A stretch of DNA of 64,000 nt from Escherichia coli (GTDB taxonomy: Bacteria > Pseudomonadota > Gammaproteobacteria > Enterobacterales > Enterobacteriaceae): the NCBI RefSeq assembly GCF_045037415.1, contig NZ_CP173438.1; one strand, given 5' to 3'. The first letter of the stretch is position 1; each line of letters opens with the position of its first letter. The notes beneath the pieces are model-generated. The model saw nothing but the letters and a program-made list of their open reading frames with translations, ran no database searches and was not told the DNA's origin. The translations under genes were made by a program, and so were the position numbers. Positions 8,625 through 63,316 of the stretch are shown one piece after another.

Positions 8625-10073
8625 TTAAAGACCGATGCACATATATTTGATTTCTAAGTAATCTTCGATGCCATACTTCGAACCTTCACGACCCAGACCC
8701 GAGGCTTTAATGCCGCCGAACGGGGCCACTTCATTGGAAATAATGCCGGTGTTGATGCCGATGATGCCGTACTCCAGTGCTTCGCCCACGCGGAAGACGC
8801 GGCTTAAATCACGGGCGTAGAAATAGGCTGCAAGTCCAAATTCGGTGTCATTGGCTTGCGCAATCACATCGGCTTCATCTTTAAAACGGAACAGCGGGGC
8901 GAGGGGGCCAAACGTCTCTTCTTTCGACACTTTGGCGTTAGCCGGAACGTCTACCAGAATGGTCGGCTGGAAGAAGTTACCGCCGCGTTCATGTGCTTTA
9001 CCGCCGCAAACCACGCGCGCGCCTTTCTCCAGCGCATCAGCAATATGCTCTTCCACTTTTGCTACCGCTTTTTCATCGATCAACGGCCCGATGGTGACGC
9101 CTTTCTCCAGCCCGTCGCCGATGTGCAGTTTGCTCACCGCCTGCTGCAATTTTTCGGCAAAGCGGTCATACACGCTGTCCTGCACATACAGGCGGTTGGC
9201 GCAGACGCAGGTTTGCCCGGCGTTACGGAATTTCGAGGCCAGCGCGCCTTCCACGGCTTTATCGAGATCGGCATCGTCAAAGACAATAAACGGTGCGTTG
9301 CCGCCCAGCTCCAGCGACACTTTTTTGATGTCTTTCGCGCACTGTTCCATTAACTGACGGCCAATTTCGGTCGAGCCGGTAAACGACAGCTTGCGCACCA
9401 GCGGGTTGCTGGTCAGTTCGTTACCGACCGCGCCCGCCGAACCGGTGACCACGTTAAACACGCCAGCCGGAACGCCCGCGCGAATCGCCAGTTCTGCCAG
9501 CGCCAGCGCAGAGAACGGCGTCTGACTGGCGGGCTTCAGCACCATGGTGCAGCCAGCCGCCAGCGCCGGACCAGCTTTACGGGTAATCATCGCCGCCGGG
9601 AAGTTCCATGGCGTGATAGCCGCGGTGACGCCAATCGGCTGCTTGATCACAATCAGGCGTTTATCGGCCTGATGACCGGGAATGGTGTCGCCATAAATAC
9701 GTTTGCCTTCTTCAGCAAACCACTCAATAAATGAGGCGGCGTAGCTGATTTCGCCTTTCGCTTCAGCCAGTGGTTTGCCCTGTTCGAGGGTCATCAGGCG
9801 CGCTAAATCGTCCTGATGCTCCATCATTAAATTGAACCAGTTGCGCAGAATGTTGGCGCGTTCTTTGGCAGTGAGCGCACGCCAGGCGGGCAGGGCGCGG
9901 CTGGCGGCGTCGATAGCGGCGCGGGTTTCATCAGCGCCCATTTTCGGCACGCTACCCAGCTTGTCGCCGTTCGCCGGATTGGTGACGTCGATGACCTCGC
10001 CATTGTTGGCGTCCAGCCATTCCCCGTTAATCAACGCCTGCTGGCGGAATAAGTTACTGTCGTTAAGTTTCAT
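8625..10073 (-). CDS. gabD: GabD, NADP-dependent succinate-semialdehyde dehydrogenase
   Basis: 482-aa ORF MKLNDSNLFRQQALINGEWLDANNGEVIDVTNPANGDKLG...; aldehyde dehydrogenase family. Confidence 0.95.
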   Translation of the reverse strand: MKLNDSNLFRQQALINGEWLDANNGEVIDVTNPANGDKLGSVPKMGADETRAAIDAASRALPAWRALTAKERANILRNWFNLMMEHQDDLARLMTLEQGKPLAEAKGEISYAASFIEWFAEEGKRIYGDTIPGHQADKRLIVIKQPIGVTAAITPWNFPAAMITRKAGPALAAGCTMVLKPASQTPFSALALAELAIRAGVPAGVFNVVTGSAGAVGNELTSNPLVRKLSFTGSTEIGRQLMEQCAKDIKKVSLELGGNAPFIVFDDADLDKAVEGALASKFRNAGQTCVCANRLYVQDSVYDRFAEKLQQAVSKLHIGDGLEKGVTIGPLIDEKAVAKVEEHIADALEKGARVVCGGKAHERGGNFFQPTILVDVPANAKVSKEETFGPLAPLFRFKDEADVIAQANDTEFGLAAYFYARDLSRVFRVGEALEYGIIGINTGIISNEVAPFGGIKASGLGREGSKYGIEDYLEIKYMCIGL

Positions 10074-10098: not shown

Positions 10099-11364
10099 TT
10101 AATTAAATGCGGCGTGTAAGGCATCCACACTACGTGCCGCTCGCAGCGTGCGTCCGGGGTTACTCTGGCTTGCCAACAGCGTTTGTACCTTGCTGACAAT
10201 ATGCGCACCAATAGGAATTGCTGATGTCGCTGCCGGGGAGGGCGCATTACAGGTGTGGATCGTGCGCGGGGTGGTGACAAACAGAAAATCGTCAATCAGC
10301 TTGCCGTCCGGCGATACCGCCTGCGCCCGCACACCGGGGGGCCAGGGCTGGAGATCGCTTAACGAAAGCCGGGGACAATACTTTTGCACCAGCCGCAGAT
10401 AGCCGCTTTTGCACAGCGAGTTTTTCATCTCGCCCAGTCCTGAGCGTAGATGGTTTTGCAGCACCCGGCGAATCCCCGACGAGCCTAAAATCTCCAGCGT
10501 GTCACTAAATGAGAAGTCGCGCTTGCGGTAGCCTTCGCGTTTGAAAGCCAGCACCGCGTTTGGCCCGACGGTCACGCTGCCGTCGATCATGCGGGTGAGA
10601 TGCACGCCCAAAAACGGCATTGCCGGGTCGGGAATGGGGTAAATCAGGTGGTTAACAATCTGGTTATGCTCTGGCGCAAGGCGGAAATACTCGCCGCGGA
10701 ACGGGCAGATAATAAAGCCCGGTTCGAGGCCGAGCATTTTCACCAGCCGGTCAGCCATCAGCCCGGAACAACTAATCAGCGTCGATGCTTCATATTCACC
10801 GCCCTGACGGGTACGTATCACCACGCCGTTTTTATGCTCACTGAGGGCGCTGACTTCGGCGTTATAAATAATCTCACCACCTCTGGCCTGGAAGATTTTT
10901 GCCATCGCCGCCGTCACTTCGCGGTAGCTGACAATGCCGCTGGACGGCACAAAAATGCCGCCAAGCCCGGTGATATTCGGTTCACGCTCGCGCAGCTCCT
11001 CGGCGTTTAACCACTCGCGCTCGATCCCGTTTGCCGCCGTGCGTTTCCATAACGCATTCATCCGTTCCATTTCGAGTTCAGACGTGGCGACCAGCATCTT
11101 GCCGCAGTTGTCGTAGCGAATGCCGTTTTGATCGCAAAAGACTTTAGTGGCGCGGTTCCCCGCCAGGCAAAACTGCGTCTTCAGGCTACCGGGCGTGTAA
11201 TAGACTCCGGCATGGATCACGCCGCTGTTGTGGCCCGTCTGGTGACAGGCAGGGCCGGACTCTTTTTCCAGCAACGCAATGCGGGCGTCAGGATAGATAT
11301 CAATCAGTTGCATGGCGGTCGACATGCCGATGATGCCGCCGCCAATAATCACAAAATCATACAT
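10099..11364 (-). CDS. lhgO: LhgO (YgaF), L-2-hydroxyglutarate oxidase/dehydrogenase (FAD)
   Basis: The track ORF extends 22 codons upstream; start placed at MYDFVIIGGGIIGMSTAMQL (Rossmann FAD-binding motif), 20 bp after the csiD stop. Confidence 0.9.
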   Translation of the reverse strand: MYDFVIIGGGIIGMSTAMQLIDIYPDARIALLEKESGPACHQTGHNSGVIHAGVYYTPGSLKTQFCLAGNRATKVFCDQNGIRYDNCGKMLVATSELEMERMNALWKRTAANGIEREWLNAEELREREPNITGLGGIFVPSSGIVSYREVTAAMAKIFQARGGEIIYNAEVSALSEHKNGVVIRTRQGGEYEASTLISCSGLMADRLVKMLGLEPGFIICPFRGEYFRLAPEHNQIVNHLIYPIPDPAMPFLGVHLTRMIDGSVTVGPNAVLAFKREGYRKRDFSFSDTLEILGSSGIRRVLQNHLRSGLGEMKNSLCKSGYLRLVQKYCPRLSLSDLQPWPPGVRAQAVSPDGKLIDDFLFVTTPRTIHTCNAPSPAATSAIPIGAHIVSKVQTLLASQSNPGRTLRAARSVDALHAAFN

Positions 11365-11383
11365 CCGCTCAATTCCTTTGCGC

Positions 11384-12560
<1,177 letters not shown>

Positions 12561-12879
12561 ATATTAAGTGTGCTTATACTCTTTTTCGAACTGGTGGCAT
12601 TTGTTTAAATGCTATTTAAACTGCTTTTTCAGAGTTCAACTTACTGAGTTCCGTGTCGACTAATGTGAGTAAGATCAATCGCATCCAACCTATGTTACTT
12701 GATGGCATCGATAACAATATTAATGAACATACAGATTCCGGGAAGGCTGGCTATGGGGGCAAATTATTCTCTTTCTGGAAACGGGTAAATAACAGTGACC
12801 ATTTGTCGAGAAGCTGATACTGAGCTGAGGGATACTGTATATGTCTGGACTGTAATTGGATGAATTCTATTCAGGGCGG

Positions 12880-12904
12880 GTCAGGACCAATAAAAAAGCC
12901 CGCA
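12880..12904 (-). terminator. Rho-independent terminator downstream of ssrA
   Basis: On the minus strand GCCCGC-UGAU-GCGGGC is followed by UUUUUUA; about 140 nt past the mature tmRNA 3' end. Confidence 0.55.
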
Positions 12905-13044
12905 TCAGCGGGCTTTAATGTCATAGGGAGTCGCGACTCCGTTGCGTATCCTTTTTTGTCTCCTCACCGTCTGGTCGGTGTCCTGCTGAGACTTATAACT
13001 TCCTGTTTTTGTTGGTGTAGTCCTTACACCGTCCAATCATTATT

Positions 13045-13407
13045 TGGTGGAGCTGGCGGGAGTTGAACCCGCGTCCGAAATTCCTACATCCTCGGTACTA
13101 CATGCTTAGTCAGTCTTTACATTCGCTTGCCAGCTGCGGACGGACACGCCACTAACAAACTAGCCTGATTAAGTTTTAACGCTTCAACCCCAGGCAGGGC
13201 TTCCACGCGATCTCTTTTGGGTTTGACCTCTCTTGATCCCCGTCCTAAGAGCGGAGGCTAGGGAGAGAGGGCTCTAAGCAGGTTATTAAGCTGCTAAAGC
13301 GTAGTTTTCGTCGTTTGCGACTATTTTTTGCGGCTTTTTACGAGGCCAACCGCCCCTCGGCATGCACCTTGGGTTTCGCAAATCCCGTCGAATCCAGAAT
13401 CAGCCCC
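13045..13407 (-). ncRNA. ssrA: tmRNA (SsrA, 10Sa RNA), 363 nt
   Basis: Minus strand reads GGGGCUGAUUCUGGAUUCGACGGG ... CUCCACCA with the tRNA-like acceptor/T-arm; internal tag reading frame GCAAACGACGAAAACTACGCTTTAGCAGCTTAA (ANDENYALAA-stop) lies near 13283-13315. Confidence 0.97.
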
Positions 13408-13621: not shown

Positions 13622-14104
13622 TTAACGATGGGCGTTTTTCATGATACGCGCTTTATCCACCTGCCATTCGCGTTCTTTGATATCTGAACGTTTATCGTGC
13701 TGTTTTTTACCTTTGGCGACGCCGATTTTCACTTTGCACCAGGCATTTTTCCAGTACAGGGAGAGCGCCACTACGGTATAGCCTTCTCGATTTACGCGAC
13801 CGTACAATGAGTCCAGTTCGCGCTGGTTGAGAAGTAACTTGCGGGTACGGGTAGGATCGCACACCACATGCGTGGAGGCCACAGCCATTGGCGTGATGTT
13901 AGCGCCAAACAGAAATGCCTCTCCGTCACGCAGAAGGACGTAGCTGTCGCTGATATTGGCTTTTCCTGCACGCAGGGATTTAACCTCCCAGCCTTGCAGG
14001 GCAAGTCCCGCTTCGAACTCTTCTTCGATAAAGTATTCGTGACGGGCGCGCTTGTTAAGCGCGATGGTCGCTGAACCAGGTTTATGTGCTTTTTTCTTCG
14101 TCAT
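13622..14104 (-). CDS. smpB: SmpB, SsrA-binding protein
   Basis: 160-aa [50 protein letters not shown]...; recognised as SmpB. Confidence 0.95.
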
Positions 14105-31140: not shown

Positions 31141-31162
31141 AGTGTTGCCTTTTTGTTATCAA

Positions 31163-31192
31163 TAAAAAAGGCCCCCCGATTTGGGAGGCCTT
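31163..31192 (-). terminator. pheA attenuator terminator
   Basis: Minus strand reads GGCCUCCC-AAAUC-GGGGGGCC followed by UUUUUUAU, between pheL and the pheA start. Confidence 0.75.
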
Positions 31193-31238
31193 ATTGTTCG
31201 TCTTCGCATTCTGTTTCACACGACGAAACGCCTCCCAT

Positions 31239-31286
31239 TCAGGGGAAGGTAAAAAAGAATGCGAAGAAAAACGGTGTGTGTTTCAT
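31239..31286 (-). CDS. pheL: PheL, phe operon leader peptide (15 aa, 7 Phe codons)
   Basis: Minus strand ATGAAACACACACCGTTTTTCTTCGCATTCTTTTTTACCTTCCCCTGA encodes MKHTPFFFAFFFTFP-stop; K-12 as I recall it has Ile at position 4. Confidence 0.9.
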   Translation of the reverse strand: MKHTPFFFAFFFTFP

Positions 31287-31389
31287 GTTTGTTTCCTTAA
31301 GTGACTTTAGTACAGTACCCGTACTGTTTTCACGCTGTCAACAAAAAACGCGCCCGAAGGCGCGTTGGCGATACACTCAATATAAAGGA

Positions 31390-34581: not shown

Positions 34582-34643
34582 CCTAAAGAATCAAGACGAT
34601 CCGGTACGCGTGATTTTCTTTTCACATTAATCTGGTCAATAAC

Positions 34644-34672
34644 CTTGAATAATTGAGGGATGACCTCATTTA
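34644..34672 (+). promoter_or_regulatory. Sigma-32 heat-shock promoter of clpB
   Basis: CTTGAAT at 34644-34650 and ACCTCATTTA at 34663-34672 resemble the sigma-32 -35 and -10 elements, about 40 bp upstream of clpB. Confidence 0.6.
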
Positions 34673-34710
34673 ATCTCCAGTAGCAACTTTGATCCGTTAT
34701 GGGAGGAGTT

Positions 34711-37284
34711 ATGCGTCTGGATCGTCTTACTAATAAATTCCAGCTTGCTCTTGCCGATGCCCAATCACTTGCACTCGGGCACGACAACCAATTCATCGAA
34801 CCACTTCATTTAATGAGCGCCCTGCTGAATCAGGAAGGGGGTTCGGTTAGTCCTTTATTAACATCCGCTGGCATTAATGCTGGCCAGTTGCGCACAGATA
34901 TCAATCAGGCATTAAATCGTTTACCACAGGTTGAAGGTACTGGTGGTGATGTCCAGCCATCACAGGATCTGGTGCGCGTTCTTAATCTTTGCGACAAGCT
35001 GGCGCAAAAACGTGGTGATAACTTTATCTCGTCAGAACTGTTCGTTCTGGCGGCACTTGAGTCTCGCGGCACGCTGGCCGACATCCTGAAAGCAGCAGGG
35101 GCGACCACCGCCAACATTACTCAAGCGATTGAACAAATGCGTGGAGGTGAAAGCGTGAACGATCAAGGTGCTGAAGACCAACGTCAGGCTTTGAAAAAAT
35201 ATACCATCGACCTTACCGAACGAGCCGAACAAGGCAAACTCGATCCGGTGATTGGTCGTGATGAAGAAATTCGCCGTACCATTCAGGTGCTGCAACGTCG
35301 TACTAAAAATAACCCGGTATTGATTGGTGAACCCGGCGTCGGTAAAACTGCCATCGTTGAAGGTCTGGCGCAGCGTATTATCAACGGCGAAGTGCCCGAA
35401 GGGTTGAAAGGCCGCCGCGTACTGGCGCTGGATATGGGCGCGCTGGTGGCTGGGGCGAAATATCGCGGTGAGTTTGAAGAACGTTTAAAAGGCGTACTTA
35501 ACGATCTTGCTAAACAGGAAGGCAACGTCATCCTGTTTATCGACGAATTACATACCATGGTCGGCGCGGGTAAAGCCGATGGCGCAATGGACGCCGGAAA
35601 CATGCTGAAACCAGCGTTGGCGCGTGGTGAATTGCACTGCGTAGGTGCCACGACGCTTGACGAATATCGCCAGTACATCGAAAAAGATGCTGCGCTGGAA
35701 CGTCGTTTCCAGAAAGTGTTTGTTGCCGAGCCTTCTGTTGAAGATACCATTGCTATTCTGCGAGGCCTGAAAGAACGTTACGAGCTGCACCACCATGTGC
35801 AAATTACTGACCCGGCAATTGTTGCAGCAGCGACGTTGTCTCATCGCTACATTGCTGACCGTCAGCTGCCGGATAAAGCCATCGACCTGATCGATGAAGC
35901 AGCATCCAGCATTCGTATGCAGATTGACTCAAAACCAGAAGAACTCGACCGACTCGATCGCCGTATCATCCAGCTCAAACTGGAACAACAGGCGTTAATG
36001 AAAGAGTCTGATGAAGCCAGTAAAAAACGCCTGGATATGCTCAACGAAGAACTGAGCGACAAAGAACGTCAGTACTCCGAGTTAGAAGAAGAGTGGAAAG
36101 CAGAGAAAGCCTCGCTTTCTGGTACGCAGACCATTAAAGCGGAACTGGAACAGGCGAAAATTGCTATTGAACAGGCTCGCCGTGTGGGTGACCTGGCGCG
36201 GATGTCTGAACTGCAATACGGCAAAATCCCGGAACTGGAAAAGCAACTGGAAGCCGCAACGCAGCTCGAAGGCAAAACTATGCGTCTGTTGCGTAATAAA
36301 GTGACCGATGCCGAAATTGCTGAAGTGCTGGCGCGTTGGACGGGGATTCCGGTTTCTCGCATGATGGAAAGCGAGCGCGAAAAACTGCTGCGTATGGAGC
36401 AAGAACTGCACCATCGCGTTATTGGTCAGAACGAAGCGGTTGATGCGGTATCTAACGCTATTCGTCGTAGCCGTGCGGGGCTGGCGGATCCAAATCGCCC
36501 GATTGGTTCATTCCTGTTCCTCGGCCCAACCGGTGTGGGGAAAACTGAGCTTTGTAAGGCGCTAGCGAACTTTATGTTTGATAGCGACGAGGCGATGGTC
36601 CGTATCGATATGTCCGAGTTTATGGAGAAACACTCGGTGTCTCGTCTGGTTGGTGCGCCTCCGGGATATGTCGGTTATGAAGAAGGTGGCTACCTGACCG
36701 AAGCGGTGCGTCGTCGTCCGTATTCCGTCATTCTGCTGGATGAAGTGGAAAAAGCGCATCCGGATGTCTTCAACATTCTGTTGCAGGTACTGGATGATGG
36801 GCGTCTGACTGACGGGCAGGGGAGAACGGTCGACTTCCGTAATACGGTTGTCATTATGACCTCTAACCTCGGTTCCGATTTGATTCAGGAACGCTTCGGT
36901 GAACTGGATTATGCGCACATGAAAGAGCTGGTGCTCGGTGTGGTTAGCCATAACTTCCGTCCGGAATTCATTAACCGTATCGATGAAGTGGTGGTCTTCC
37001 ATCCGCTGGGTGAACAGCACATTGCGTCGATTGCGCAGATTCAGTTGAAACGTCTGTATAAACGTCTGGAAGAACGTGGTTATGAAATCCACATTTCTGA
37101 CGAGGCGCTGAAACTGCTGAGCGAGAACGGTTACGATCCGGTCTATGGCGCACGTCCTCTGAAACGTGCAATTCAGCAGCAGATTGAAAACCCGCTGGCA
37201 CAGCAAATACTGTCTGGTGAATTGGTTCCGGGTAAAGTGATTCGCCTGGAAGTTAATGAAGACCGGATTGTCGCCGTCCAGTAA
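34711..37284 (+). CDS. clpB: ClpB, AAA+ disaggregase chaperone (Hsp104 family)
   Basis: Start at [39 protein letters not shown]..., 857 aa, with two AAA+ modules (GEPGVGKT and GPTGVGKT Walker A motifs). Confidence 0.97.
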
Positions 37285-39430: not shown

Positions 39431-39623
39431 CTTGCTGGTTTGTGAGTGAAAGTCACCTGCCTTAATATCTCAAAACTCATCTTCGGGTGATGTTTGAGAT
39501 ATTTGCTCTTTAAAAATCTGGATCAAGCTGAAAATTGAAACACTGAACAACGAGAGTTGTTCGTGAGTCTCTCAAATTTTCGCAACACGATGATGAATCG
39601 CAAGAAACATCTTCGGGTTGTGA

Positions 39624-59887: not shown

Positions 59888-60843
59888 TGAAGCAACTTTG
59901 GTTTGCCATGTCATTAGTGACAGGTAGCCTGTTATTCTCTGCTAACGCCTTGGCCACTCCCGCGTCCGGGGCGTTATTACAGCAGATGAACCTGGCCAGT
60001 CAGTCACTGAATTACGAGCTGTCATTTATCAGCATCAATAAACAGGGTGTTGAGTCTCTGCGTTATCGACATGCACGCCTCGATAACCGTCCTCTTGCAC
60101 AATTGTTGCAAATGGATGGCCCGCGCCGGGAAGTGGTACAGCGCGGCAATGAAATCAGCTATTTTGAACCGGGACTTGAACCGTTCACGCTTAATGGCGA
60201 TTACATTGTTGATTCTCTGCCATCGCTCATCTATACCGATTTCAAACGCCTTTCTCCTTACTACGACTTTATCTCTGTCGGGCGCACGCGTATTGCTGAT
60301 CGTCTTTGCGAAGTCATTCGTGTGGTTGCCCGAGATGGTACACGCTACAGCTACATCGTGTGGATGGACACCGAATCGAAATTACCGATGCGGGTTGATC
60401 TCCTTGATCGCGATGGTGAAACGCTGGAACAATTTCGCGTGATTGCTTTTAACGTCAATCAGGATATCGGCAGCAGTATGCAGACGCTGGCGAAGGCAAA
60501 TTTGCCGCCGTTGCTTTCTGTTCCTGTTGGTGAAAAAGCTAAATTCAGCTGGACGCCAACCTGGCTGCCACAGGGTTTTAGCGAAGTTTCCAGTAGTCGA
60601 CGTCCGCTACCGACGATGGACAACATGCCTATCGAATCACGTCTCTATTCCGACGGATTATTCAGCTTCTCGGTAAACGTTAACCGCGCTACGCCATCGA
60701 GCACCGATCAGATGTTGCGCACCGGACGCAGAACCGTCAGTACAAGCGTACGTGATAACGCCGAAATCACCATTGTTGGTGAACTGCCGCCGCAAACGGC
60801 GAAACGCATTGCCGAGAATATTAAGTTCGGGACAGCGCAATGA
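59887..60843 (+). CDS. rseB: RseB, periplasmic regulator of sigma-E
   Basis: 318-aa ORF MKQLWFAMSLVTGSLLFSANALATPASGALLQQMNLA... with a signal peptide. Confidence 0.95.
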   Translation: MKQLWFAMSLVTGSLLFSANALATPASGALLQQMNLASQSLNYELSFISINKQGVESLRYRHARLDNRPLAQLLQMDGPRREVVQRGNEISYFEPGLEPFTLNGDYIVDSLPSLIYTDFKRLSPYYDFISVGRTRIADRLCEVIRVVARDGTRYSYIVWMDTESKLPMRVDLLDRDGETLEQFRVIAFNVNQDIGSSMQTLAKANLPPLLSVPVGEKAKFSWTPTWLPQGFSEVSSSRRPLPTMDNMPIESRLYSDGLFSFSVNVNRATPSSTDQMLRTGRRTVSTSVRDNAEITIVGELPPQTAKRIAENIKFGTAQ

Positions 60844-61319
60844 TCAAAGAGTGGGCTACCGTCGTCTCCTGGGAAAACGGGCAGGCGCTGGTCAGTTGTG
60901 ATGTTAAAGCCTCATGCAGCAGCTGCGCTTCACGCGCCGGTTGCGGTAGCCGTGTGTTGAATAAACTTGGCCCGCAAACCACGCATACCATTGTCGTACC
61001 CTGTGATGAGCCGCTAGTGCCGGGGCAAAAAGTGGAATTGGGGATCGCCGAAGGCAGCCTTCTTAGCTCCGCATTACTGGTTTATATGTCGCCGCTGGTG
61101 GGATTATTCCTCATCGCTTCGCTATTTCAGCTACTCTTTGCTTCTGACGTCGCAGCATTATGTGGTGCGATCCTCGGCGGTATTGGTGGGTTCCTGATTG
61201 CGCGCGGCTATTCGCGTAAGTTTGCTGCCCGGGCAGAATGGCAACCGATCATCTTAAGCGTGGCATTGCCGCCTGGCCTTGTGCGATTTGAAACATCTTC
61301 GGAAGACGCGAGCCAGTGA
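60840..61319 (+). CDS. rseC: RseC, membrane protein of the rpoE operon
   Basis: 159-aa ORF MIKEWATVVSWENGQALVSCDVKASCSSCASRAGCGSRVL...; its start overlaps the rseB stop by 4 nt. Confidence 0.9.
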   Translation: MIKEWATVVSWENGQALVSCDVKASCSSCASRAGCGSRVLNKLGPQTTHTIVVPCDEPLVPGQKVELGIAEGSLLSSALLVYMSPLVGLFLIASLFQLLFASDVAALCGAILGGIGGFLIARGYSRKFAARAEWQPIILSVALPPGLVRFETSSEDASQ

Positions 61320-61516
61320 TTTCACTGGCTTTGTTGCATTTTGCATAACAAATGCGAGGACGTTTCCATATACCACAATCCATACGGTATGAACATTTCC
61401 TCGCCTCAATGTTGTAGTGTAGAATGCGGCGTTTCTATTAATACAGACGTTAAGCTCAGAACAGCGACTTCTAAAAGCCTGGTTAACCGGGCATTAAGGC
61501 ACAATAATCATACTTT

Positions 61517-63316
61517 ATGAAGAATATACGTAACTTTTCGATCATAGCTCACATTGACCACGGTAAATCGACGCTGTCTGACCGTATTATCCAGATCTGC
61601 GGTGGCCTGTCTGACCGTGAAATGGAGGCGCAGGTTCTCGATTCCATGGATCTTGAGCGTGAGCGTGGCATTACCATCAAAGCGCAAAGCGTGACGCTGG
61701 ACTACAAAGCGTCTGACGGCGAAACCTATCAGCTTAACTTTATCGACACCCCGGGCCACGTAGACTTCTCCTATGAAGTTTCTCGTTCGCTGGCTGCCTG
61801 TGAAGGTGCATTGCTGGTGGTCGACGCCGGGCAGGGCGTAGAAGCGCAAACCCTGGCAAACTGCTACACCGCCATGGAAATGGATCTCGAAGTGGTGCCG
61901 GTACTGAACAAGATTGACCTGCCGGCAGCCGATCCTGAACGCGTGGCGGAAGAAATTGAAGATATCGTCGGCATCGACGCCACCGACGCGGTGCGCTGTT
62001 CAGCGAAAACCGGCGTTGGCGTGCAAGACGTTCTCGAACGCTTGGTGCGCGACATTCCGCCGCCGGAAGGCGATCCGGAAGGCCCATTGCAGGCGCTGAT
62101 TATCGACTCCTGGTTCGACAACTACCTGGGCGTTGTTTCACTTATCCGTATTAAAAACGGCACCCTGCGTAAGGGCGACAAAGTGAAAGTCATGAGCACC
62201 GAGCAGACCTATAACGCCGATCGTCTGGGCATCTTCACGCCGAAGCAGATTGACCGCACTGAACTGAAATGTGGCGAAGTAGGCTGGCTGGTATGTGCGA
62301 TTAAAGATATCCACGGCGCTCCAGTAGGCGATACCTTAACACTGGCGCGTAATCCGGCAGAAAAGGCGCTGCCTGGCTTTAAGAAAGTCAAACCTCAGGT
62401 ATATGCTGGTCTGTTCCCGGTAAGTTCCGACGACTATGAAGCCTTCCGTGACGCGCTGGGTAAACTCAGCCTGAACGATGCCTCACTGTTCTATGAGCCG
62501 GAAAGCTCCAGCGCGTTGGGCTTTGGTTTCCGCTGCGGCTTCCTTGGCCTGCTGCACATGGAGATCATCCAGGAACGTCTGGAACGTGAATACGATCTGG
62601 ATCTGATCACCACTGCGCCGACTGTAGTGTATGAAGTTGAAACCACGTCAAGAGAAGTTATCTACGTCGACAGCCCATCCAAGCTGCCAGCGGTAAATAA
62701 CATTTACGAACTGCGCGAGCCGATTGCAGAGTGTCACATGCTGCTGCCGCAGGCATATCTCGGCAACGTTATTACGCTGTGCGTAGAAAAACGCGGCGTG
62801 CAGACCAATATGGTTTACCACGGTAATCAGGTGGCGCTGACGTACGAGATCCCGATGGCGGAAGTGGTGCTCGACTTCTTCGATCGCCTGAAATCTACCT
62901 CGCGTGGTTATGCGTCTCTGGATTACAACTTCAAACGCTTCCAGGCGTCCGACATGGTACGTGTAGACGTATTAATCAACGGTGAACGTGTTGATGCATT
63001 GGCGCTGATCACCCACCGTGGTAATTCGCAAAACCGCGGTCGCGAGCTGGTGGAGAAGATGAAAGATCTGATCCCACGCCAGCAGTTTGATATCGCCATT
63101 CAGGCAGCGATTGGTACGCACATCATTGCGCGCTCCACCGTGAAACAGCTGCGTAAAAACGTACTGGCTAAATGTTATGGCGGCGATATCAGCCGTAAGA
63201 AAAAGCTGCTGCAGAAGCAGAAAGAAGGTAAGAAACGCATGAAGCAGATCGGTAACGTCGAGCTGCCGCAGGAAGCGTTCCTCGCCATTCTGCACGTCGG
63301 CAAAGACAACAAATAA
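61517..63316 (+). CDS. lepA: LepA (EF4), translational GTPase
   Basis: 599-aa [60 protein letters not shown]... with GTPase motifs. Confidence 0.97.

Follow-up and report, generated by a model that had tools for sequence, protein, structure and literature searches.

A palindrome downstream of ssrA in Escherichia coli: a candidate RNA hairpin in a conserved native trailer

In a 64,000-nucleotide stretch of an Escherichia coli chromosome (contig NZ_CP173438.1; hereafter the window) the tmRNA gene ssrA stands without any inserted island, and a perfect 14-bp palindrome, GGAGTCGCGACTCC, is found downstream of its 3′ end. The question raised by this locus is whether the palindrome is an accident of sequence, a protein-binding site or part of an RNA. 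On balance, we think that it forms an RNA hairpin, H4, in the 3′ trailer of the native ssrA primary transcript, 10 nt before the intrinsic terminator.

The initial annotation had placed the palindrome at 12917-12930 and the terminator at 12880-12904. The palindrome exists, in a single copy in the window, and a strong intrinsic terminator hairpin is present on the minus strand; the coordinates, however, were 10-12 nt too low. The palindrome occupies 12927-12940, so that the range 12880-12930 includes just four of its 14 bases, and the hairpin lies at 12895-12916 with its T-tail at 12889-12894. Counted from the CCA, the palindrome takes up nt 105-118 of the flank and is thus outside tmRNA itself, as the match to the tmRNA model RF00023 and the ARAGORN gene both end at 13045. 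The elements needed from the outset are as follows.

12889..13044, minus strand: native 3′ trailer of ssrA, or 3′ external transcribed spacer; 156 nt, starting after the CCA and taking in the whole T-run of the terminator
12927..12940, minus strand: helix H4, palindrome GGAGUCGCGACUCC, with a 5-bp stem and a CGCG loop, 10 nt upstream of the terminator
12916->12895, minus strand: intrinsic terminator hairpin AAAGCCCGC-tgat-GCGGGCTTT, then TTTTTT to 12889

It had been argued that a perfect 14-mer is unlikely to occur by chance in a short spacer. For the window as a whole the number of such palindromes is unremarkable: four were counted, where uniform composition predicts 3.9 and dinucleotide shuffles give 4.9 +/- 2.3. 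In sequences of trailer length they are rare, at least one being present in 0.6% of shuffles of the 156-nt trailer and in 5% of shuffles of the 683-nt spacer. Since the count is at the level of chance, the case for the palindrome depends on comparison across genomes, and it is conservation that carries the signal.

Extent, displacement and conservation of the native tail

Sequence comparison identified the 156 nt past the tmRNA CCA end (13044->12889) as the native, ancestral 3′ flank of ssrA. The segment 12893-13040 is common to 4192 of 5426 E. coli genomes at 88-92% identity. Laboratory strains lack the tail at its normal place because mobile islands insert at ssrA. In K-12 it is found at about 2,777,986-2,778,141, 22 kb from ssrA, behind prophage CP4-57; there it directly follows psaA, a 14-nt ssrA fragment marking the far end of CP4-57, and the 3′ end of ypjA, a convergent gene, is 10 bp away. 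Describing the palindrome as lying beside an integration hotspot was therefore apt, as islands at ssrA displace the whole tail in K-12 and in most E. coli. The K-12 ssrA trailer comes from CP4-57 and is unrelated, so 3′-end mapping of the K-12 precursor does not apply to the native tail.

Relatives were collected in a scan that covered a single genome for each species and used the final 47 nt of ssrA as query; it returned 120 Enterobacterales loci. Directly after the CCA, about 90 of these had short island-type trailers and about 29 a homologue of the window tail. Homologous tails were present in Escherichia whittamii, E. albertii, Citrobacter, Klebsiella, Pseudenterobacter, Pluralibacter and Trabulsiella, and also in Mixta, Mangrovibacter, Kosakonia, Photorhabdus and Xenorhabdus; a more divergent "variant" type was found in Pseudocitrobacter, Atlantibacter, Trabulsiella and an Enterobacter. 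Absence from close relatives had been named beforehand as the outcome that would count against the palindrome, and across these relatives it was present. The alignment of 28 sequences from 28 species had zero indels in columns 11-118 (108 nt) and 36 invariant columns. A pattern built from the invariant columns, which fixes 28 positions, was then used to search IMG/VR. It matched more than 120 contigs, and ahead of every match stood either the 3′ end of ssrA or a piece of that end 3-52 nt long; the contigs are prophage calls in which host flank is included. In total, 92 distinct 108-nt cores were collected; the helices described below were assessed on 46 distinct Enterobacteriaceae-type sequences.

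Identity to the window was 64-93% for the tail and 95-99% for tmRNA. With the exception of the closest relative, E. whittamii, it was 54-61% over the next 150 nt and 59-65% in the smpB-ssrA spacer. In both position and sequence, the tail is conserved across genera above the background of its flanking DNA, put at 54-63% identity with the closest relative again excepted. A profile search (nhmmer) found a single copy in the window, at 13034-12928 (E = 6e-24). The genes downstream of the tail differ in every genus, and no integrase-sized open reading frame (ORF), the presence of which would have assigned the tail to an island, was evident just downstream, the products of these diverse neighbours not having been searched against protein families. 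Attached and displaced copies had 0.84 and 0.90 broken pairs, a comparison without power as seven sequences occur in both states.

A coding function was considered and rejected. The candidates were a 43-amino-acid (aa) minus-strand ORF (12905-13036) and a 68-aa plus-strand ORF (12860-13066); each frame is broken by stops in one taxon or another. Variability by codon phase (0.20, 0.16 and 0.16) shows no 3-nt periodicity. The 68-aa ORF, the only one of the two submitted, had no Pfam match.

Nine pairs (six of them G-C) and a 4-nt loop make up the terminator hairpin, which on the minus strand runs into a TTTTTTAT tail; its folding energy is -16.2 kcal/mol (z = -4.4). The hairpin at 12895-12916 thus combines a GC-rich stem of at least 5 bp, a loop of 3-8 nt and an adjoining U-tract, as expected of an intrinsic terminator; it is flanked by A and U tracts on both sides and is therefore bidirectional. 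No minus-strand terminator was found between the ssrA end and 12916. In 85 of 92 trailer variants the T-run stops 150-160 nt after the CCA (mode 153-154), and the stem sequence differs by lineage. As the distance is fixed and the stem sequence free, it is an ssrA-sense transcript of fixed length that is being kept. One IMG/VR variant has an inverted terminator loop, GCCCGC-ATCA-GCGGGC compared with GCCCGC-UGAU-GCGGGC (RNA sense) in the window, which points to inversion mediated by the hairpin. The variant and Xenorhabdus tails share a conserved CTATTTGTAA...GTAACAAA motif past the terminator.

Several observations concern movement of the tail. Trabulsiella odontotermitis (loci L068 and L123) and Enterobacter sp. 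(L011 and L034) each have very different tail types under one name, and near-identical tails are found in different genera; from these sequences the tail appears to have been exchanged horizontally at the ssrA hotspot. In E. coli strain S3 a 68-nt copy of the ssrA-proximal part (L128, 2501-2568) lies near prfC beside a DinI-like gene, which may be a prophage remnant; it looks as if carried there by an element once imprecisely excised from ssrA. The 33-kb plasmid p5-S1-CAM-01-A bears a full copy (L129, 3001-3148) by a truncated AIDA/ypjA-like autotransporter gene and IS26; this copy is mobilised chromosomal flank DNA. In Pseudocitrobacter (L028) a 312-aa ORF just past the tail, 480-1418 nt from ssrA on the opposite strand, looks from its sequence alone like an IS605-family TnpB.

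Helices of the tail and covariation of the palindrome

Folding of the minus-strand trailer, the check proposed with the initial annotation, predicted structure at -52.9 kcal/mol (z = -3.4) that includes helices H2 and H3 below. The remaining segments of the tail, from the CCA end onwards, and one overlapping hairpin on the other strand are:

13035..13044, minus strand: first 10 nt after the CCA, AAUAAUGAUU (AUCAUGAUU in most relatives, containing the 8-bp palindrome ATCATGAT); putative att-proximal segment
13014..13030, minus strand: helix H1, GGUGUA-AGGAC-UACACC, with GGA in the loop; alignment columns 15-31, -7.4 kcal/mol
12997..13007, minus strand: conserved block AAC-AGGAA-GUU in AAAAACAGGAAGUUA, columns 38-48
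12992-12988 with 12962-12958, minus strand: helix H2, GUCUC / GAGAC, enclosing H3; in the minimum-energy fold
12965-12980, minus strand: helix H3, CACCG-ACCAGA-CGGUG, loop ACCAGA; in the minimum-energy fold
12944..12951, minus strand: R1, GGAUACGC, a direct-repeat copy of the 5′ half of the palindrome, 11 nt ahead of it
12932..12946, plus strand: alternative terminator-like hairpin CGCGAC-TCC-GTTGCG, then TATCCTTTTT; from a consensus scan, overlapping the palindrome

The helices were defined by hand in the Enterobacteriaceae group and then tested. On 28 species the four-helix structure had 68.3% of cells paired, compared with 62.3 +/- 0.7 for shuffled alignments (0 of 500 as high) and 35-43% for slid ones. 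The covariation score was 0.264, compared with 0.189 for shuffles (again 0 of 500 as high) and at most 0.146 for slid controls, and 14 pairs were changed on both sides. For the tail as a whole, pairs are thus kept through two-sided changes above the level of the controls.

Among the 46 distinct sequences, columns 19-27 of H1 form three Watson-Crick pair types (AT in 17, TA in 14, CG in 13) and columns 15-31 form GC or AT pairs; slid controls were 20-36% paired. In H3, the addition of Kosakonia-type sequences revealed the double changes AT<->GC, CG<->GC and CG<->TA. In H2 a U56.G84 wobble, which would be C.A if read on the other strand, occurs in 16 of the 46. G.U pairs are more frequent on the sense than on the antisense strand both in H2 (7.6% vs 0.7%) and in H4 (3.5% vs 0.4%), an excess that fits the ssrA-sense strand being the RNA strand. 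The conserved block, in which A38 A39 C40 A41 and T47 T48 A49 are invariant, possibly forms a 3-bp mini-hairpin with a GGA loop: such a hairpin appears in single-sequence folds of Citrobacter, Mixta, Photorhabdus and Xenorhabdus and is absent from the window fold. A cmscan match below threshold places this block against a stem-loop of RsmZ.

In the palindrome itself, 94.8% of H4 pairs in the 46 sequences are Watson-Crick and 3.5% are G.U. The majority allele, GGAGCCGCGGCUCC, accounts for 37 of 92 distinct cores, with 10 more having a terminal G.U; G105.U118 occurs in 8-10 distinct sequences. The window allele, which belongs to the contiguous-spacer lineage, differs from the majority by a symmetric double change of C109-G114 to U-A that keeps the pair. 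In the variant lineage a different palindrome, AAGUGCACGUGCACUU, stands at the same spot, shifted by one nucleotide, and in Xenorhabdus and Photorhabdus a hairpin is formed here from an A-rich arm and a U-rich arm. A few singleton sequences break one H4 pair. R1 and R2 change together between lineages.

Of the two proposals made in the initial annotation, part of a second stem in the 3′ trailer of the tmRNA precursor is accordingly the one we favour. The position of the palindrome, past the CCA and ahead of the sole terminator on the minus strand, is conserved across genera; its pairing survives when both halves are substituted symmetrically, and in one lineage another palindrome stands there instead.

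Other sequence features accompany these helices. GAC, mostly as GGAC, recurs at an 11-nt period on the minus strand of window positions 12958-13034 (columns 12, 23, 63, 74 and 85 of alignment A2); the variant lineage has four GAC units in succession (columns 52, 63, 74 and 85). Two more 11-nt units follow the GAC series, R1 GGAUACGCAAA and R2 GGAGCCGCGGC. At the other end, most native tails begin with AUCAUGAU, an 8-bp palindrome right after the CCA, and one island class starts likewise; ATCATGAT also opens one class of island-borne trailers. The tail in the window begins with AAUAAUGAU, as does another island class. The loci compared for this include L004 (1487-1495) and the island loci L085 and L114. 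The shared starts suggest that some ssrA integrases have a recombination core reaching beyond the CCA, and that the window lineage may once have hosted, then lost, such an island. The CP4-57 trailer of K-12 (L001, 1457-1535) and many island-type loci (L009, L013, L051) have a covarying hairpin with a CCAGA(G) loop, comparable to ACCAGA in H3, and another island class carries CCGGAUACGUCCGG, which contains the R1 core GGAUACG. By hand arithmetic, about 0.7-2.7 shared 6-7-mers are expected by chance between native and island trailers, so these are not significant alone.

A proposed hairpin in the primary transcript and the alternatives

In the mechanism that we propose, RNA polymerase would run from the ssrA promoter through the tail to 12889, and the resulting pre-tmRNA would exceed the mature RNA by about 155 nt. 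The A/U-rich stretch after the CCA would be cut by an endonuclease, and exonucleases would trim the tmRNA end; in K-12 the endonuclease cutting pre-tmRNA is RNase E. With H4 and the terminator, the precursor and, once released, the tail would each have a 3′ end of two hairpins, an end that would keep the A-rich single strands of the tail exposed and slow 3′-to-5′ decay. The module would also stop the very strong transcription of ssrA, which ranks among the most highly transcribed genes of the cell, 528 nt ahead of glaH. That the tail is co-transcribed with ssrA we infer from the orientation of the terminator and the sense-strand excess of G.U pairs.

A number of observations weigh against this interpretation. 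RNAalifold on all 28 species returned only three pairs, of the R1 ACG with the centre of the palindrome, in competition with H4; Photorhabdus, Xenorhabdus and the variant type use partly different pairing registers, which is why so few pairs were recovered over all lineages. H4 is near-invariant within most lineages, so that its covariation amounts to one double-change event and one lineage replacement. In the window allele it is weak (-5.7 kcal/mol, z = -0.85, with 33 of 200 shuffles folding as well); the majority allele folds at -10.5 kcal/mol (z = -2.3). Two sequences, from Klebsiella spallanzanii and a Kosakonia-type contig, have the single change GGAGCCGCGACUCC, which is C.A on the sense strand and G.U on the antisense strand. 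In addition, islands bring short unrelated trailers (79 nt in K-12), some only a terminator; as these replace the native tail, it is not needed to make tmRNA. Finally, part of the cross-genus similarity may stem from horizontal exchange at the hotspot, given the different trailer types under one species name. With the tail dispensable for tmRNA, its conservation reflects either a separate function or, in part, such exchange.

A separate function would be provided if the cleaved tail persisted as a regulatory RNA of about 150 nt, with H4 as its penultimate hairpin, and served as a sponge or decoy for an RNA-binding protein or small RNAs. The targets could be CsrA, through GGA sites, or a reader of the periodic GAC motif; the 3′ external transcribed spacer of the leuZ tRNA would be the precedent. 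We regard this as possible but doubtful. It would supply the other reason that conservation of a tail dispensable for tmRNA requires, and primary sequence is kept beyond the stems, in the single-stranded A-rich blocks AAAAACAGGAAGUUAG and ACAAAAAAGGAUACGCAAAGG. Three lineages have 6.6-7.5 GGA motifs per 108 nt, compared with 3.2-3.6 in dinucleotide shuffles (lineages A-C, p about 0.002-0.03; D and E not enriched). Xenorhabdus and the variant lineages, however, have only three GGA, which is no enrichment, and two GGA sites were fixed by the pattern used to collect sequences. One or two GGA lie in hairpin loops (H1 and the possible mini-hairpin), the others being single-stranded or in stems. The Klebsiella indica tail gave a full-length, sub-threshold match to PrrB_RsmZ (21.7 bits, E = 0.002); that score is half of the gathering threshold of 44 bits, and the window allele has no RsmZ match at E <= 10. 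The U-tailed terminator and ARN-like runs resemble those of Hfq-binding RNAs. Displaced copies, though they lack the ssrA promoter, were no more degraded than attached ones, by the powerless test mentioned above. The stronger proposal, that the native tail is an undescribed conserved Enterobacterales RNA that acts in trans, titrating CsrA or a factor reading GAC, R1 and R2, and is switched off by island insertion, is likewise no better than tentative.

The palindrome might also be without function, arisen by chance or templated by a hairpin, carried in the flank beside the conserved ssrA and exchanged horizontally with islands. The chance-level number of such palindromes in the window and the weakness of the hairpin in the window allele agree with this, as do trailer types that do not track species names, the partial and full tail copies moved to another locus and to a plasmid, respectively, and the inverted terminator loop, which shows hairpin-mediated sequence turnover. 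We nevertheless consider it improbable. The smpB-ssrA spacer and the DNA past the terminator are at a background of 54-65% identity (closest relative excepted) compared with 64-93% for the tail, no indels occur over 108 nt across families, palindromy is retained in a lineage of entirely different sequence, and the double substitution is compensatory.

A role for the palindrome on the plus strand, where it would be a second intrinsic terminator backing up the first against transcription that converges on ssrA (from ypjA in K-12), seems very unlikely to us. The plus-strand hairpin is followed by TTTGCGTATCCTTTTTT, the consensus scan flags 12932-12946, and 12920-12962 folds ahead of a U-run (-14 kcal/mol, z = -3.0); ypjA ends 10 bp from the module, and the C.A intermediates become G.U on the plus strand. 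Transcripts of the plus strand would, however, reach the main hairpin at 12895-12916 first, and that is already bidirectional. The U-tract past the palindrome is broken by GCG, in the variant lineage over 10 nt separate the U-run from the hairpin, the ssrA-sense strand is favoured by the G.U counts, and there is no convergent gene in the window. The palindrome has no adjoining U-tract of an intrinsic terminator on either strand: it is followed by CUAUGACAUU on the sense strand and by GUUGCGUAUCCUUUUUU on the plus strand, with the U-run starting 11 nt away. By the rule of the consensus scan, only the alternative hairpin at 12932-12946 qualifies.

Little probability, in our view, attaches to the palindrome as a double-stranded DNA operator for a dimeric protein, which the initial annotation had offered as its other possibility. 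Its perfect symmetry over 14 bp and near-invariant sequence in most lineages would suit one, as would the direct repeat R1 at a spacing of 11 bp and the 11-nt periodic GAC upstream, close to one turn of the DNA helix. Yet matched changes in the two halves restore pairing, and would weaken, not restore, recognition by an unchanged protein; chiefly for this reason a nucleic-acid hairpin is preferred. No candidate binder was found, no obvious linked regulator gene was seen among the varying downstream neighbours (products not searched against families), and we recognised no known operator consensus in the palindrome. The start of glaH is 566 bp away in the window and about 10 kb away in K-12.

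Related RNAs, implications and the surrounding locus

Among known systems, the hairpin at 12895-12916 is like bidirectional Rho-independent terminators in its GC-rich 9-bp stem, 4-nt loop, minus-strand U-run and upstream A-run, and in its place between ssrA and, in K-12, the convergent ypjA. The palindrome differs from them: it lacks an adjoining U-tract in the sense direction, has a broken one on the other strand and is not a canonical terminator. K-12 pre-tmRNA is a 457-nt precursor matured by RNase E and then by RNases T and PH. Its trailer and the native tail both extend from the CCA end to the first intrinsic terminator and are both removed in maturation; the K-12 trailer, however, is 79 nt, encoded by CP4-57 and unrelated in sequence save for the hairpin with the CCAGA loop, compared with 156 nt for the native tail.

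The 3′ETS-leuZ RNA is a tRNA 3′ external transcribed spacer that acts as an sRNA sponge (Lalaouna et al. 2015, cited in PMC7914890). The tail shares with it a conserved segment between the CCA end of a stable RNA and an intrinsic terminator, which would be released endonucleolytically. It differs in being about three times longer and in having four helices. With CsrB / RsmZ (RF00166, clan CL00106) it has in common several GGA, some in loops, followed by a terminator, and the sub-threshold full-length match of one relative. It departs from that family in its low score (21.7 bits compared with a gathering threshold of 44), in the lack of a match for the window, in two lineages without GGA conservation and in not being an independent gene. 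In Streptococcus pyogenes M1UK, read-through of the ssrA terminator enters the downstream island gene speA (PMC9951164). Termination past a strongly transcribed ssrA thus controls the input to the next gene, which here would be the unit glaH-lhgO-gabD in the same orientation; the organism and the sequence differ, and the part of that paper drawn on here notes no conserved structured trailer.

Searches against Rfam 15 gave no family at threshold for the window, Klebsiella or Photorhabdus tails, and the sub-threshold hits on tails come from the terminator, save for one weak RsmZ match. RefSeq has no annotated feature in the ssrA tail. The literature searched (full-text; other papers may hold one) contained no description of a conserved native ssrA trailer. 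The tail appears not to have been described before, probably as its place at ssrA has been taken by CP4-57 in K-12 and by other islands in most E. coli. In kind it would be a conserved structured trailer of a stable RNA gene, like tRNA 3′ external transcribed spacers and, more loosely, CsrA sponges.

The tail is conserved from Escherichia to Xenorhabdus and, with its terminator, is the sole separation of ssrA from the same-strand glaH-lhgO-gabD in this strain. It marks the true far edge of island arrays at ssrA and is useful for annotation of island boundaries. As a mere processing and termination module it would be ordinary. Should it have its own function, that function would be lost with every island inserted at ssrA, a new kind of cost or switch linked to mobile elements. 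A trans-acting RNA, if real, would have been missed in K-12, the strain used for most RNA biology, as CP4-57 occupies ssrA there.

The genes around the tail are as follows.

8625-10073, minus strand: gabD
10099-11430, minus strand: lhgO
11384-12361, minus strand: glaH/csiD
13045..13407, minus strand: ssrA (tmRNA), mature RNA of 363 nt with tag peptide ANDENYALAA, found by ARAGORN and by Rfam RF00023 (295.8 bits)
13622-14104, minus strand: smpB

The carbon-starvation operon glaH-lhgO-gabD is the next unit downstream of the tail. The window matches several complete genomes at 100% identity, and its strain is a B2 E. coli. Of the 5426 complete E. coli genomes, only 1099 have the unbroken 683-bp ssrA-glaH spacer, ABU 83972 and FDA strain Seattle 1946 among them. 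So compact an arrangement was probably the ancestral one in the genus, as glaH of E. whittamii likewise lies about 620 nt past ssrA. Between the terminator and the glaH promoter region, a 333-bp stretch (12560-12892) occurs in only about 1100 of the 5426 genomes; it holds an ORF of 54 aa on the plus strand (12653-12817), for which Pfam gave no match, and is accompanied by two weak promoter-like sites on that strand, at 12533-12580. The other above-threshold Rfam matches, all expected here, are AsrC, the rseC antisense RNA (60804-61635, minus strand), RyfD/Ysr155 (34592-34730, plus strand), StyR-44 of the rRNA operon spacer (39508-39616, plus strand) and the Phe leader (31162-31287, minus strand).

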